From assembly GCA_963760795.1 (NCBI GenBank), contig CAVXEP010000015.1, forward strand, positions 64,001-128,000: a stretch of 64,000 nucleotides of DNA, given 5' to 3'. A program made the position numbers and the translations under genes. Shown here piece by piece: positions 1,787 through 10,259 of the stretch. The notes below the pieces were generated by a model. The model ran no database searches and was not told the origin of the DNA. It saw nothing but the letters and a program-made list of their open reading frames with translations. The stretch comes from an uncultured delta proteobacterium (lineage in GTDB: Bacteria; Desulfobacterota; Binatia; UBA9968). The stretch's first letter is position 1; every line of letters begins with the position of its first letter.

Positions 1787-2630
1787 TCACTTGGCGAGCT
1801 TGGAACCCTTGAGATCGAGCGCCAGCTTATAGACTTCCTTCTTCGCCAGTCCGTAGCGCTCACCGAGCAACTCCGCGATCTCCTTCACGCCCATGCCGGT
1901 GCCGGCGAGTTGGCGGATCGTCCCGTGCAGTTCCTCGTCGGACACCCGCGCCTCGCCGCTGGTGCCATGAACCATAATCACGATTTCGCCTTTAATGTCG
2001 CGGTCGGCGAGCGCGCGAACAACTTCGCTTAGCTTGCCGCGTCGGAACTCTTCGTGAACCTTGGTCAGCTCGCGGGCCACAGCGATCTCCCGGTCGCCGA
2101 AGATCTTGAGCATTTCGGCGAGCGAGTCCAAGAGCCGGTGCGGCGCCTCGTAAAAAACCAATGTCGCCGACTGCGTCGCGCAGGCTTTGCAATTTGGTTT
2201 TTCGCTCCTGGGTCCTGGCCGGCAGAAAACCTTCGAACAAGAAGCGGTCCGTCGGCAAACCGCTGGCACTGAGCGCCGTGGTCAATGCCGATGCGCCGGG
2301 CAACGGAACGACCTGAATCCCGGCCTGAATCGCATCGACGACAATGCGATAACCCGGATCGGAAATCGCCGGCGTGCCGGCGTCGGACACTAGCGCGATG
2401 CTGGCGCCGCTCTTCAGGCGCTCCACCAGAGTCCGTGCTTTGCCGCGTTCGTTATGGTCGTGATAGCTGGTCAGCGCCGTATTGATGCCAAAGTGCGCGA
2501 GCAAGTGCTGCGTGTGCCGGGTGTCCTCTGCGGCGATCAATTCGACTTCTTTGAGAACCCGCAGCGCGCGCAAAGTGATGTCTTCGAGATTGCCGATGGG
2601 AGTTGGAACGATGTAGAGGGTCCCGGCCAT
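1787..2630 (-). CDS. rsmI: 16S rRNA (cytidine(1402)-2'-O)-methyltransferase (frameshift near 2178)
   Basis: [40 protein letters not shown]; the second frame gives FYEAPHRL and RELTKVHEE. Confidence 0.95.
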
Positions 2631-2716: not shown

Positions 2717-3539
2717 TCATTTCCCCCAGTCTCTAGAATAGCGGAAGTCGCGGTCGATGGTGCGCTGCGACACCTTGGCGATCACCGGCAGGCGCCGTTT
2801 GAATTGGGAATTCATGATCCGCGCGGCGATGTCGTCGATGAAGCGTTCGGGAAATCCCGCTGGCGACCAGCTCAGCTTTGGTGTAGCGCTGGTCGACCAT
2901 CAAGTAGAGCAGCTTGTCTACTTCGCGGTAGGTAAAACCCAACTCACCCTCGTCGGTCTGGCCGCTCCACAGATCCGCCGACGGCTCTTTCTGGACGATG
3001 ACTTGGGGCACGCCGATCGCCTCGGAGAGCGCCCACACTTGGGTCTTGTAGAGATCGCCCAGCGGATTGATCGCCGACGCCGTGTCGCCGTGCAGCGTAC
3101 CATAGCCCAACAAAAGTTCGGTCTTGTTGCTGGTGCCGAGAACTAAAGCGCTCCAGCGCATCGATTGGTCATAAAGAATCGTCATGCGCTCGCGCGCCAT
3201 CTTGTTGCCACGCCGGCGCGCGTCGGCATCGGGGAAGCCAGCAAAATAACCGTCGATCTGCGCCGTGATCTCGACCAACATCGACTCGATACCGCTTTTT
3301 TGCACGACCATTTCGGCATGGGCCCGGCTATCCGAATTGGAGCTCTTGTAAGGCATCAAGACGCCCAATACGTTTTGCCGCCCTAGAGCCTCAGCAGCCA
3401 ACATCGCGCTCAGCGCCGAATCCACCCCGCCGGAAAGACCGACCACCACGCGCGCCAGCCCGGTCTTGCGCACTTCATTGCGAATAAAAGCGACGAGAAT
3501 CTGGCGCAGCAAAGCAGCGTTGGTCGGTATTTGCGTCAT
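2717..3539 (-). CDS. nadE: NAD+ synthetase, synthetase subunit (frameshift near 2856)
   Basis: [43 protein letters not shown]; true C-terminus SQFKRRLP...[11 protein letters not shown] is in the shifted frame. Confidence 0.95.
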
Positions 3540-3547
3540 GCGGCAGG

Positions 3548-4462
3548 TTATTTCTTCTTGGCGCTTCTCCGGCCTTGAACTTTTGAACCCTTGAACCCTT
3601 GAACGATTTTAGCCCCCGGCCGCTCGCGGATGCGCATCAGCTCGTTGATCGTCAGATCCAAATCTTCGTCGCGCAACAGCGGCGACATGGTGCGTTTGCG
3701 CCGCACCGCTTCGAAGCTAGCGTCGACGGCGATGAAGTCCTCGTCATAGTAGCGCGCTTTAGCGAGCCGCTCGCCGAAGGGATCGACGATCTCGGAGCCG
3801 CCCCAGAAGCCGACGCCGTCTTCAAAACCGCAGCGGTTGCCGTAGATCATGAACAGGCTGAAGGTTTCGGCATAGACGCGATTGAGCATTTCCCAGTAGC
3901 GCGCGTTGTCGTCCTGGCTCTGCTGGTCGACGATGCCGCGGAGTGGGCTCGCCGACGGACAGAGCACCGCCAGGGCGCCGTCCAAGGCGGCTAAGTAAAT
4001 CGTCGACGGGTGCCAGAGATCTTCACAAATCAACAGCGCCATACGGCCGAACTTGGAGTCGAAGGCGCGTACCCGGTCGCCGCGGGCGAAGTAGCGCTGC
4101 TCATCGAACATGCCATAGGTCGGCAGATAGACTTTGCGGTGCACATGGCGAATCTCGCCATCTTCGAAATAGACTGCCGAGTTGAAAAACCTATGATCGG
4201 CGCTCTCTTCCACCAGGCCGGCGACGAAGGACAGCTTGCGGCTGAGTGCCATGAGCTGCTTGATTTCCGGCGCGTTGAGCGTCAGCGCCACCGTCGGCAC
4301 GGTATCGCGCAGCATGTAACCGGTGAGACTCAATTCGGGGAATAACAACAATTGGGTTTTGTCAGCGGCGGCGTGGCCGATGCGTTCTTCATACACGGCC
4401 AGGTTGGCCTGGAGGTCGCCAAGTCTTGGGTTGACCTGACCGATAGCGATGCGGATAGACAC
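3548..4462 (-). CDS. Carbon-nitrogen hydrolase (nitrilase family), probable glutaminase subunit of NAD synthetase
   Basis: E-K-C triad FPEL / HRKVYLP / ICEDLW; [10 protein letters not shown]; 8 nt upstream of nadE. Confidence 0.9.
3573..3604 (-). repeat. 4 x octamer GTTCAANN array inside the nitrilase 3' end
   Basis: ccttgaac ttttgaac ccttgaac ccttgaac, encoding [11 protein letters not shown]. Confidence 0.8.
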
Positions 4463-4530
4463 GGGAAAATCTCCGTCTGCGAGCCAGCTAGAAATAAATT
4501 CTCACGAAACTAACATAGGCCTAACCACAC

Positions 4531-4559
4531 TTGCAATTTCCCCCAGTCGCGCTTACCTT
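4531..4559 (+). promoter_or_regulatory. Possible sigma70 promoter for the selenoprotein gene
   Basis: TTGCAA-N17-TACCTT about 50 nt upstream of ATG 4608. Confidence 0.3.
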
Positions 4560-4607
4560 GATTGTATCGACGAAACCAAGCGTAACCGGCCATCCAGCCG
4601 CAAAACC

Positions 4608-4832
4608 ATGGCAGAAAACGTTACTATTTACGGCCAAGATCTGTGAGCTTTTACTTCGGGAGCCCGTGCGGACTTCACCCGGCGCAAAGTGCCATTCGAG
4701 TATGTCAACGTCTTGGAAGACGGCGCCGGCCTTGAGCGCATGAGACAGCTCACCAATGGCCGGCGCAAGATTCCGGTGATCGTCCAAGACGGTAAGGTCA
4801 GCGTCGGCTTCGGCGGCACCTGAGAAGTCTGA
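4608..4832 (+). CDS. UXX-star family glutaredoxin-like selenoprotein, 74 aa, with Sec at codons 13 and 72
   Basis: MAENVTIYGQDLUAFTSGARADFTRRKVPFEYVNVLEDGAGLERMRQLTNGRRKIPVIVQDGKVSVGFGGTUEV*; TGA at 4644-46 sits at the Trx-fold UxxT site and TGA at 4821-23 gives U-E-V-stop; cis-Pro motif KIPVI. Confidence 0.9.
4659..4676 (+). promoter_or_regulatory. Putative bacterial SECIS for Sec13
   Basis: GGAG-C-CC[GTGC]GG-A-CTTC hairpin starting 12 nt after the TGA, with G first in the loop. Confidence 0.6.
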
Positions 4833-4834
4833 AC

Positions 4835-4851
4835 TGCCGGCGGTGTCGGCA
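4835..4851 (+). promoter_or_regulatory. Putative bacterial SECIS for Sec72
   Basis: TGCCGGC[GGT]GTCGGCA hairpin starting 11 nt after the TGA, with a G-rich loop. Confidence 0.7.
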
Positions 4852-4906
4852 CCAATACGAGAGCGCCCAGGCGAAAATTACCCTTAGCCAAACTCCAAAT
4901 CCACCC

Positions 4907-5983
4907 TTGGTTGCATCCATCGATCAACTAATTGCCGAGAAAGTCGGCTTGCTTTTCGGCCGCAACACCGCCGTAACCGGCGTCACCGCCTTACCCGGCG
5001 ACGCCTCGACGCGGCGCTATTATCGCGTCCACCTAAACGGATCCGGCACGCCGCCGTCGCTGATGTCGATGCAATTGCCCGCCGGCAGCGGACTGCCGAT
5101 CTCCAGCGAAGAGCTGGCGGTCTTCCCAGACGCTCCCAAGGAACTGCCGTTTTTAAACGTACACCGTTTCCTCGATCGCGTCGGCGTCAGAGTGCCAATT
5201 ATCTACGGCCATTGGGAAGCCGAGGGCCTGCTGCTACTCGAAGATCTGGGCAATGTCGCTTTGTGGGACCGGGTGCAAGGTTTATCCGAAGCCGAAGTCG
5301 TCGCGTGGTACAAAAAGGCCATCGACGAGCTTCTACGATTACAAATTGCCGGCACCGAACACCGTGACGACTCCTGCATCGCTTTTCAGCAACGTTTCGA
5401 CGAGAAACTCTACGTCTGGGAATTCGAGCATTTTATCGAATGGGGTTTGAAAAAACGGCCTGGCGCAAAGATCTCAACCACTACGCTCGCGACGCTGCGC
5501 GAAACCTTTGCCGCCATCGCGCAGACGCTCGACCGCCAACCGCCCTGTCTCAATCACCGTGATTACCATAGCTGGAATCTGATGATCCACAACGAGGCGG
5601 TATGCGTCATCGACTTTCAAGACGCCCTGCTCGCGCCGGCGCAATACGATCTCGCCTCGCTGTTAAACGATCGCATCACTGACGCCGTCATCCAACCGCA
5701 TATTGAACCGCAGCTGGTCGAGTATTATCGCGAAAGAGCCATTGAGCTATCGGGTCGCGCCATCTCGCGCCAGGAATTTTTGGATATCTACCGGCTGTCG
5801 GCGATCCAACGCGACTTAAAAGTCGTCGGCCGCTTCTACTATCTCGATCTGGTCAAAGGCAAACCGGGCTATATGAAATTCGTCCCGCCCACCGTGCGCC
5901 GGCTCCAGCGCAATCTCGCCCATGTGGCGCAGACTGAGATAATCCTGCCGCTGTTGCGCGAACATTTTGAGGCGATGCTGTGA
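4907..5983 (+). CDS. amgK: Anomeric MurNAc/GlcNAc kinase-like protein (APH family)
   Basis: GDASTRRYYR, LLLEDLG, HRDYHSWNLM, IDFQDA, YDLASLL, QRDLKVVGRF; coupled to an NTP transferase. Confidence 0.8.
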   Translation: MVASIDQLIAEKVGLLFGRNTAVTGVTALPGDASTRRYYRVHLNGSGTPPSLMSMQLPAGSGLPISSEELAVFPDAPKELPFLNVHRFLDRVGVRVPIIYGHWEAEGLLLLEDLGNVALWDRVQGLSEAEVVAWYKKAIDELLRLQIAGTEHRDDSCIAFQQRFDEKLYVWEFEHFIEWGLKKRPGAKISTTTLATLRETFAAIAQTLDRQPPCLNHRDYHSWNLMIHNEAVCVIDFQDALLAPAQYDLASLLNDRITDAVIQPHIEPQLVEYYRERAIELSGRAISRQEFLDIYRLSAIQRDLKVVGRFYYLDLVKGKPGYMKFVPPTVRRLQRNLAHVAQTEIILPLLREHFEAML

Positions 5984-8850: not shown

Positions 8851-9411
8851 TTAGTTGCGCGCAGCAATCACACCGCAGGCAGCGCGGTCGCCGGCGTTTC
8901 CCGTCGGATCGGTGGTGTCATCGTCAACGCCGGCATGTACGACCAAGGCACTGCCATCGGCGTCAAAGACTGAGTTTGGCCCGGCCCCAAGGGTGACAGC
9001 GTCGGTCAGAGCTTCAAAACGGCCGGCGCCATCCTTCGCAACCAGCATGTTCGGCAAATCGCCGGCGTGGGCGCCATCCGGGTTCCGGTAGCCATGTTTC
9101 TTCTGCGTTGGGTTAAAATGTCCGCCCGCGCTGGTAAACGCCGGCCCGTCACATTTGCCAACCGCATGGATATGCACCGCATGGAGACCGGCGCTGAGCC
9201 TTTTGACCTCCGCTCTAACCCGCACACCGTCGCCGACCTCGATAAACGATGCCATGCCGATCGTCTTGCCATCTTTGTCCTTGAGTTCGGCGGTCGCTCG
9301 TTCGCCTGGGCCGACTAGTGCGCAACCCGCTCCGGCAACGAACGACAAGGCGCAAAAAGTTACGATAGCTATCCAGCCATGAAGGTCTTTGAAGCAGCGG
9401 CAATATTGCAT
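8851..9411 (-). CDS. sodC: Cu/Zn superoxide dismutase (probable lipoprotein; start uncertain)
   Basis: HAVHIH, SAGGHFNP, HAGDLPN, VHAGVDD, GNAGDRAACGVI. Confidence 0.93.
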   Translation of the reverse strand: MQYCRCFKDLHGWIAIVTFCALSFVAGAGCALVGPGERATAELKDKDGKTIGMASFIEVGDGVRVRAEVKRLSAGLHAVHIHAVGKCDGPAFTSAGGHFNPTQKKHGYRNPDGAHAGDLPNMLVAKDGAGRFEALTDAVTLGAGPNSVFDADGSALVVHAGVDDDTTDPTGNAGDRAACGVIAARN

Positions 9412-9539
9412 AGGGAATTCGATACCATCGATCGAATTGGCTAGCAACCAATTCATGACAAATTGGTGCAAAGGTGGCGTCTATTTACCCGCTGATTGCG
9501 ACGCATCCGGGCCTATGCTAGCGTTCGACGTTATTCGTC

Positions 9540-10259
9540 ATGTCCGCTCTAGCGATATATTTGCCGACGGTGGTTTTCGTCTCCTTGCTCGGCGGCTTCT
9601 TGCCATTGATGCGGGCGTTGTCCCAGCGGGCCCTCGCCCTACTGCTCAGTTTTAGCGCCGGTGTCCTGCTCGGCGCGGTGTTTTTTCACATGTTGCCGGA
9701 GACCGGTAAAGTCCTTGGCGAAAACGTCGGCCTACCGGTGCTGGCTGGCTTCCTGCTGATCTTCGTCATGGAACGGTTTGTCTTCATCCATGCCTGCGAA
9801 GAACATGACTGCGACATCCATCAAATGGGTCTTCCAGCGTTTCTCGGTATTTCGCTGCACAGTCTACTCGACGGCATCGCCCTCGGTGCCGGTCTGATTC
9901 TGCCACAGATTGGCCCGATGGTGTTACTCGCCGTGATCATTCACAAGATGCCCGACAGCATGTCGATCTCGTCGATCCTGCTCTCCGCCGGCTGGGAACG
10001 CCATAAAGTCGGCAAGCTCAATTTGCTGTTTTCCCTCACCACCCCCATCGGCGCGCTGCTGGCCTTTTTCAGCTTCCGTGTGCTCTCTCCGGAGAATGTC
10101 GCCGTCGCCATCGGCTTATCCGCCGGCACTTTCCTGGCCATCGCCACCGCCGACATCTTGCCCCATGTGCACCGCATCGAGCAGCGCAATCCGATGACTC
10201 TTGCTTTTCTGGCCATTGGCCTAGCGGTCAGTTGGATGGGCACGCTGTTGGTCCACTGA
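9540..10259 (+). CDS. ZIP family metal transporter
   Basis: FSAGVLLG, HSLLDG, HKMPD; His/Cys loop HACEEHDCDIH. Confidence 0.9.
   Translation: MSALAIYLPTVVFVSLLGGFLPLMRALSQRALALLLSFSAGVLLGAVFFHMLPETGKVLGENVGLPVLAGFLLIFVMERFVFIHACEEHDCDIHQMGLPAFLGISLHSLLDGIALGAGLILPQIGPMVLLAVIIHKMPDSMSISSILLSAGWERHKVGKLNLLFSLTTPIGALLAFFSFRVLSPENVAVAIGLSAGTFLAIATADILPHVHRIEQRNPMTLAFLAIGLAVSWMGTLLVH

Follow-up and report, generated by a model that had tools for sequence, protein, structure and literature searches.

The UXX-star families of selenoproteins were reportedly described by Haft and Tolstoy in 2025. The first of them is represented in NCBIfam by a curated equivalog model, NF041114, under the name "UXX-star selenoprotein family 1." A table in a 2026 review (PMC13188914) lists this family as "Distant Grx-like protein 1" with the motif UxxT and two selenocysteine (Sec) residues, together with UXX-star family 2, which has a single Sec and the motif GxGU. 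In the main text of the GOS paper that the review cites for the family, the only part of that paper covered here, the term "distant Grx" was not found.

A gene of this kind was analyzed in this study in a stretch of 64,000 nucleotides (nt) from an uncultured delta proteobacterium of the Binatia (contig CAVXEP010000015.1, positions 64,001 to 128,000), which is referred to as the window and whose numbering is used throughout. Judged from its codons, profile matches and predicted structure, the locus at 4608 very probably encodes a genuine protein of 74 amino acids (aa) that carries two Sec residues, has a minimal glutaredoxin fold and belongs to NF041114. The gene and its elements, including two candidate selenocysteine insertion sequence (SECIS) hairpins, one of them in the 3′ untranslated region (UTR), are as follows, each with its basis in brackets:

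4608..4829, forward strand: coding sequence of a UXX-star family 1 selenoprotein, 74 aa, with Sec at residues 13 and 72 (translation with TGA as U, NF041114, Pfam Glutaredoxin, start-codon comparison)
4644..4646, forward strand: UGA codon 13, read as Sec, first position of U-x-x-T (codons of relatives, alignment to glutaredoxins, independent contigs)
4656..4682, forward strand: putative internal SECIS hairpin in the coding sequence, with a bulged stem and a GUGC loop (folding, group-level comparison of Sec-13 and Cys-13 genes)
4821..4823, forward strand: UGA codon 72, taken as the Sec codon of the C-terminal U-E-V-stop (codons of relatives, independent contigs)
4830..4832, forward strand: true stop codon TGA, codon 75 (codons of relatives, no protein-level conservation beyond it)
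4835..4851, forward strand: 3′-UTR SECIS hairpin for UGA 4821, 7 bp with a GGU loop (folding, recurrence in relatives, covariation)

Family membership and the two UGA codons

When TGA is translated as Sec (U), the frame from ATG 4608-4610 reads MAENVTIYGQDLUAFTSGARADFTRRKVPFEYVNVLEDGAGLERMRQLTNGRRKIPVIVQDGKVSVGFGGTUEV and then meets TGA (74 aa). An earlier note made from the sequence alone had proposed this reading, and on re-translation its coordinates proved exact. The gene is hidden from ordinary calling of open reading frames (ORFs), as the same note had remarked of TGA 4644: the ORF list made with translation table 11 ends the frame at 4646 and shows the downstream part merely as a 44-aa piece at 4689..4823. 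Upstream of ATG 4608 the frame stays open back to ATG 4449. The start was placed at ATG 4608 because this ATG, which is conserved, is preceded in 30 of 50 distinct relatives by an in-frame stop no more than 60 nt away, and because the peptide upstream of it is not conserved among relatives, in which it consists of unrelated sequences. There is likewise no conservation as protein among relatives past codon 75.

The assignment to UXX-star in the earlier note is borne out by a score of 98.6 bits against NF041114 (cut-off 72), with residues 5-74 covering profile positions 1-70 of 70. A six-frame search of the whole genome with the same model returned the locus with two TGAs at 84 bits, also over the cut-off, and the protein scored 84.2 bits against the broader model NF041212 (cut-off 66) and 37.3 bits against Pfam PF00462 Glutaredoxin (cut-off 22.9). 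The tail after which the family is named is present as U72-E73-V74-TGA, that is, Sec, exactly two residues and a stop, and the UxxT motif is present as U13-A-F-T16 at the glutaredoxin active-site position. The gene is of an already known kind, typical of a selenoprotein family that is both curated and published. It shares with family 1 the full-length profile match, U-x-x-T, the C-terminal U-x-x-stop, the glutaredoxin fold, and the motif and Sec count given in the review's table (PMC13188914). No feature sets it apart from family 1. Within the phylum, the clade of the window ends in U-E-V instead of the U-G-V/I of most other families and, inside the UxxT motif, has A-F in place of P-Y.

UXX-star families 2 and 3 and the HUGP/GUXX-star fusion resemble the window gene in their fold and C-terminal Sec-x-x-stop, whereas their models (NF041211, NF047338, and NF045501) give partial matches of 52.2, 45.4, and 54.7 bits against cut-offs of 100, 97, and 325. 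No HUGP domain beyond the glutaredoxin part is encoded in the gene's own genome, and a separately encoded HUGP domain as a partner was rejected on this ground. Scores against the YruB, mycoredoxin, Grx3, and NrdH models fall far under their cut-offs. Membership among classical dithiol glutaredoxins or NrdH proteins fails with TIGR02181 (28.6 bits against 90), TIGR02194 (25 against 85.75), TIGR02200 (30.4 against 89.5), and TIGR02196 (35.7 against 88.55), and the second position of the classical CxxC site is occupied by Thr16. Residue 13 is U or C throughout two alignments, and T16 is invariant in 30 relatives and at least 90% conserved in a phylum-wide set of 41 sequences. In the alignment of that set, I7, U/C13, A19, M45, P56, G67, G70, and U72 are invariant.

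The genome (6.58 Mb in 35 contigs, 89% complete, 6% contamination) encodes the Sec machinery, the presence of which the earlier note had named as a check. The genes selA (612 bits), selB (410 bits), and selD (378 bits), all over their cut-offs, are clustered on contig C11, and a tRNA-Sec with the anticodon tca lies on contig C13; the Sec-pathway genes sit on contigs other than that of the window. The genes selD, selB, and selA are close together on one strand (G000:C11:1948-7514), and selD itself has one in-frame TGA, so that it probably encodes a Sec-containing SelD. Two further thioredoxin-fold ORFs of this genome carry an in-frame TGA at the active-site position and are probably additional selenoproteins. 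One is glutaredoxin/NrdH-like with U-G-P-C (L014, G000:C34:24696-24887), and the other resembles the N-terminal domain of glutathione S-transferase with U-P-Y-A (L015, G000:C32:474038-474208).

Codon use was compared in 30 loci from 40 related genomes and 25 loci from public metagenome-assembled genomes (MAGs), which after deduplication gave 50 distinct genes including that of the window. The counts include locus L027 of genome G004, which is flagged as unpublished and on which no claim rests. Codon 72 is TGA in all 50 genes, never TAA or TAG, and the number of sense codons after it is two in every case. At codon 75 there is TAG in 30, TAA in 10, and TGA in 10. A plain stop at codon 72 would be expected to vary among the three stop codons in the manner of codon 75, which argues against such a stop and agrees with the proposal in the earlier note that the third TGA terminates translation. 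Codon 13 is TGA in 25 genes, TGC in 18, and TGT in 7, the Cys-13 state of the public-MAG loci being by construction, since they were retrieved with a pattern requiring Cys at this position. By these codons, position 13 is a case of classic Sec/Cys alternation.

Distant homologs were sought by a profile search over 1.84 billion protein representatives. Cys/Cys forms that terminate in C-x-x were found (P0005 and P0126), so that the comparison suggested by the earlier note, for homologs with Cys or TGA at both sites, yields TGA or Cys at codon 13, TGA at codon 72, and Cys at both in these two. Many database gene calls are truncated at profile position 71 (e.g., P0002, P0003, and P0007) or start after position 13 (P0027). 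Taken at face value, such calls would favor a protein of 71 aa in which UGA 4644 alone is recoded and TGA 4821 is the stop, or a locus in which neither codon is recoded and the gene is dead or an assembly error; the weakness of the internal SECIS described below points the same way. Calls ending at 71 or beginning after 13 are, however, what a standard gene caller produces. These explanations are also at odds with a codon 72 that stays TGA while codon 75 drifts, with the exact spacing of two sense codons, a stop and then a covarying hairpin at SECIS distance, with the existence of homologs ending in Cys-x-x, and with a frame whose conservation continues past TGA 4644, a position at which half of the relatives have Cys. 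The TGAs are kept by three independent assemblies: in three DNA metagenome runs from three studies, contigs span the gene with all three TGAs unchanged. We therefore regard these explanations as highly improbable.

Other calls have W at positions 13, 72, and 75 (P0012, P0045, and P0059). Together with P0054, these proteins were apparently called under a code with TGA as Trp, with W at 13 and 72 and again where the stop lies, and continue into non-coding sequence. They could be cited for a reading in which no Sec is involved and TGA is a sense codon for Trp (NCBI table 4) or Gly (table 25). The W residues are most simply explained as calls made with a TGA=W table, because one of them sits at the stop position too, and such calls of family members are an annotation artifact to beware of in metagenome protein sets. 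Moreover, TGA closes 4 of the window's 11 family-supported ORFs, which indicates that it is an ordinary stop in this genome; the window shows neither an absence of TGA stops nor a loss of release factor 2; the alternative at codon 13 is Cys, with no Trp or Gly codons in the 50 genes; and the Sec pathway is complete. The chance that TGA is reassigned here is negligible.

In one metatranscriptome, contigs cover 4486-4660 and 4747-4894, with TGA 4644 and TGA 4821 unchanged. Two points count against the two-Sec reading or limit what supports it: these RNA contigs give neither strand nor level and the RNA library may hold DNA, and the support for the reading is comparative throughout.

Hairpins downstream of the UGA codons

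After TGA 4821 come GAAGTC, the stop TGA, "AC," and then UGCCGGC-GGU-GUCGGCA (4835-4851), a hairpin of -10 kcal/mol that was equaled by 10 of 200 shuffles. It begins 11 nt past TGA 4821 and 2 nt past TGA 4830, the same geometry that the earlier note had described. The minimal SECIS of Escherichia coli fdhF follows a spacing rule of about 11 nt, with which this distance agrees. All 50 distinct Binatia-type sequences have a G+C-rich hairpin of 4-8 bp starting 8-14 nt after the UGA (mode 10-12), the loops being GGUC in 18, GGC in 12, and GGU in 11. In shuffles of the single sequences the median p was 0.03, and 30 of the 50 values were under 0.05. With pairs numbered from the loop outward, 2, 3, 5, 6, and 7 each occur as at least two Watson-Crick types. 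Of 29 loci in the phylum's other families, 27 have a hairpin of 5 bp or more at 8-15 nt, and phylum-wide the stems are quite unrelated in sequence (e.g., GACUCAUC/GAUGAGUC and GCACACC/GGUGUGC).

A covariance model (R1) based on this hairpin has its sole match in the 64-kb window at 4821-4868, with an E-value of 1.6e-08. In the R1 alignment of 59 matches, 79.9% of cells pair, compared with 72.9% in shuffles and 30-42% with slid partners; this alignment was fitted to the structure, its sequences are inter-related, and about 9 of the 59 matches are weak (E > 0.05), three on the other strand. Changes on both sides were found in six of the seven pairs, and for each of five covariation measures none of 500 shuffles attained the observed value.

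Several results weigh against this hairpin as a SECIS. Its signal required a structure-aware alignment, which is biased toward the given structure; RNAalifold, run on plain MAFFT alignments, detected no structure on the 3′ side; and an Rfam scan of 4400-5000 returned chance-level matches only and no SECIS family. The failure of RNAalifold can be attributed to a register shift between clades, and the plain-alignment approach was replaced by a hairpin search in each sequence and the covariance-model alignment. Taken together, recurrence and covariation strongly support 4835-4851 as a genuine SECIS that lies wholly behind the stop codon, in the 3′ UTR. It is equally strongly supported that TGA 4830, only 2 nt from the stem, is too close to be served by this element and terminates translation.

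The element for UGA 4644 is less clear. The hairpin at 4656-4682 starts 9-10 nt after this codon and has a bulged stem, a GUGC loop, and a folding energy of -7.8 kcal/mol. The earlier note had assigned to each recoded UGA a hairpin 11-12 nt downstream with a G in the loop; this description holds for UGA 4821 (11 nt, covarying), and for UGA 4644 the case is weaker than the note implied, with a shorter spacing, a stability no better than that of shuffles, and support at the level of groups of genes. When the same three columns were closed over by a hairpin in every gene, TGA-13 genes had a mean of -9.9 kcal/mol (n = 24) and Cys-13 genes a mean of -6.8 kcal/mol (n = 22), a difference with a Mann-Whitney p of 0.003 among sequences that are non-independent.

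Other tests speak against a functional internal element. The hairpin at 4656-4682 was no better than dinucleotide shuffles, 169 of 200 of which folded at least as well, nor better than synonymous-codon shuffles (p 0.21). The unconstrained minimum free energy of the internal region showed no signal against synonymous shuffles (mean z -0.34), unconstrained folding was the same in Sec-13 and Cys-13 genes (p = 0.42), and RNAalifold on a MAFFT alignment of the region found just two invariant pairs. Weighing the group-level difference against these results, we consider it reasonably probable that UGA 4644 is served by this weaker, bulged hairpin within the coding sequence, with 4656-4682 as the functional element.

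Fold and possible chemistry of the selenocysteine pair

Two AlphaFold2 (AF2) runs, one with the 30-sequence and one with the 41-sequence alignment and both with Cys standing in for Sec, gave the same minimal fold, with predicted local distance difference test (pLDDT) values of 89.3 and 88.2. The models have beta strands at residues 5-9, 30-34, 57-60, and 63-66 and helices at 14-25 and 39-48 with no further helix, in the order beta1-alpha1-beta2-alpha2-beta3-beta4 followed by a short tail. The best Foldseek matches were 3ic4, glutathione-bound cGrx2 (4tr1), and Synechocystis GrxA (3qmx), with query-normalized TM-scores (TMq) of 0.78-0.81 and an E-value of 2e-4. Together with the Pfam match, these models bear out the glutaredoxin fold that the earlier note had recognized. 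The nearest solved chain by sequence is cGrx1 (7c12, 26.9 bits). In the alignment to 7c10/7c12, residue 13 corresponds to the first Cys of CPHC/CPHS; in that to 7c12, Thr16 corresponds to the second Cys of the CPHC site and Pro56 to the VP motif. We take Pro56 for the cis-Pro that is conserved in the thioredoxin fold.

The predicted protein thus shares the thioredoxin/glutaredoxin fold with cGrx1 and with classical and NrdH glutaredoxins (7c10/7c12, 4tr1, 3qmx, and 1h75; TMq 0.74-0.81). It differs from them in three respects: Thr replaces the second Cys of CxxC; the chain ends after beta4 and a 6-residue tail, so that the final glutaredoxin helix is missing; and the second redox residue would be supplied by the C-terminal tail. 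Two unrelated proteins offer analogies in the way they work. Mammalian thioredoxin reductase has a C-terminal Gly-Cys-Sec-Gly tail, in which the adjacent Cys is the partner of Sec and electrons come from the flavin site, and selenoprotein L has both Sec residues in one UxxU motif, where they form a diselenide. The window protein may be likened to the former if its Sec near the C-terminus acts with a second chalcogen residue, and to the latter if its two Sec residues form a Se-Se redox couple, which selenoprotein L has naturally within a thioredoxin fold. It differs from both in that the partners are 59 residues apart on a single domain of 74 aa.

In both AF2 models, DSSP reports two isolated two-residue bridges, at 54-55 and 72-73, and the simplest reading of the models is that these pair with each other. 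When glutaredoxins bind glutathione, its cysteinyl part is held through backbone hydrogen bonds by the residues immediately preceding the cis-Pro. The tail G-G-T-U-E-V would then lie as a beta-bridge on residues 54-55, just before Pro56. Because these residues precede the cis-Pro, where the cysteinyl part of glutathione binds, the tail would occupy the substrate groove in cis and bring Sec72 beside Sec13. Sec13 and Sec72 could then cycle between selenolates and an intramolecular selenenylselenide.

Two observations weigh against this scheme. The pairing of 54-55 with 72-73 is deduced from the DSSP string alone. In addition, two lower-scoring paralogs, L110 and L111, which are second copies in other genomes, keep the C-terminal Sec-x-x and have either Tyr13 with Cys16 or Gly13; since they have neither Sec nor Cys at 13, a 13-72 bond cannot be common to all of the wider UXX-star group. 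Evidently, to judge from these sequences, the tail Sec can exist without a canonical active-site residue. We regard the chances as evenly balanced that the tail docks at 54-55 and that Sec13 and Sec72 form a selenenylselenide/diselenol couple, as the models suggest.

The C-terminal Sec is invariant in every member examined, and position 13 is Sec in half of the relatives, Cys in half, and without either in some paralogs. Since Sec72 is invariant and position 13 swaps freely with Cys, Sec72 is more likely to be the residue that attacks and contacts the substrate, and residue 13 the one that resolves. UGA 72 is decoded three codons before the stop, by a minimal SECIS wholly in the 3′ UTR. A bolder and doubtful extension would view the protein as an inverted glutaredoxin, in which the C-terminal Sec is the obligate catalytic residue, the tail sits in cis in the glutathione groove, and position 13 is a replaceable resolving partner.

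Distribution and genomic neighborhood

Among 41 related genomes, 36 have a match over the NF041114 cut-off, of which 29 have two TGAs and 7 have one. Upstream of the window gene and divergent from it, on the reverse strand, lie a nitrilase-like glutaminase (3548-4462) and an NAD synthase (2733-3539). These two ORFs, 8 nt apart, together make up a glutamine-dependent NAD synthetase, and relatives have the same layout.

Downstream on the same strand are genes for an AmgK-like kinase and then a MurU-like nucleotidyltransferase. The earlier note had placed amgK-murU 74 nt downstream; the distance stands if TTG 4907 is taken as the start, and the gene names have to be weakened to AmgK-like and MurU-like, the two ORFs scoring 104.4 bits (cut-off 550) and 174.8 bits (cut-off 250). 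A scan found no terminator between the selenoprotein gene and the next ORF. No sigma-70-like promoter was found, which says little because the scan covers the sigma-70-like type. Co-transcription with the AmgK-like gene, raised in the earlier note, finds no support in the RNA contig, which ends at 4894 and does not bridge to the downstream ORF at 4907.

AmgK/MurU-like genes occur in 21 of 30 short loci. Of 24 longer Binatia-type loci, 17 have them downstream, four of these with a metallophosphoesterase-like gene inserted between on the opposite strand. AmgK/MurU-like genes are absent from all eight short loci of family f3 genus g3, a clade in which the selenoprotein gene is sited elsewhere, adjoining an ABC transporter. 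Among 33 phylum-wide loci from different families, AmgK/MurU-like genes are not among the shared neighbor clusters, and the largest common cluster comprises five loci with NDK and a protoglobin-PsiE protein; no conserved partner gene was found across the phylum in these 33 loci. The adjacency as a functional link was rejected, being restricted to a lineage and missing from the phylum-wide shared clusters, and it is best read as lineage synteny rather than as a sign of a family-wide partner.

A divergent branch near the NF041114 cut-off (L098, L102, L106, and L108, in other genomes of the phylum) has common neighbor clusters; in L102, L106, and L108, extra sequence is inserted ahead of the C-terminal Sec. 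The two annotated neighborhoods, those of L098 and L106, contain an Acr3-type SBF protein, an ArsP permease, and Thioredoxin_3, with a rhodanese and a cation-efflux protein in L106 as well. The setting resembles that of arsenic or metalloid resistance genes.

Such neighbors, and the paralogs with a C-terminal Sec alone, would suit a role in which the two Sec residues (or Sec and Cys) are ligands for a soft metal or metalloid (such as As, Hg, or Cu), the protein being a chaperone or resistance factor and not a catalytic oxidoreductase. The window gene and the main clade, however, have no metal or arsenic neighbors and lie instead beside NAD synthase parts and AmgK/MurU-like genes; the neighbors in other families are NDK, protoglobin, and RlmN; and the conserved Thr16, Pro56, and G-x-G-G are the context of a redox-active thioredoxin-fold site. 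Metal binding is accordingly a rather unlikely function for the window protein, and a metalloid-related role may be kept alive for the subclade of L098, L102, L106, and L108.

Two other features of the window were observed. The gene rsmI (16S rRNA C1402 2′-O-methyltransferase; 1787-2630, reverse strand) is split over two frames, with an ORF at 1992-2630 matching profile positions 2-152 and an overlapping ORF at 1787-2269 matching 142-272. The split reflects a frameshift that is either genuine or was introduced when the MAG was assembled. At 8851-10259, a Cu-Zn superoxide dismutase gene (SodC-like, 127.7 bits against a cut-off of 250) is divergent to a gene for a ZIP-family zinc transporter, and a ZIP transporter is also frequent downstream of the MurU-like gene in relatives.

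Reading of the raw sequence alone recovered a doubly recoded gene that standard ORF calling splits. The gain for biology is small, since NCBIfam already curates the family and the table of the 2026 review (PMC13188914) already includes it. The additions are modest and mostly comparative. In this clade the C-terminal UGA is never swapped for Cys and the active-site UGA is swapped often, which points to an obligate C-terminal Sec and an exchangeable active-site Sec. The locus also provides a well-supported natural bacterial SECIS sited after the stop codon. The lack of a conserved neighbor is a useful negative, since the AmgK/MurU adjacency, as lineage synteny, gives no functional clue. With 70 of 301 genomes in a sample of the phylum over the NF041114 cut-off, this small selenoprotein is widespread.

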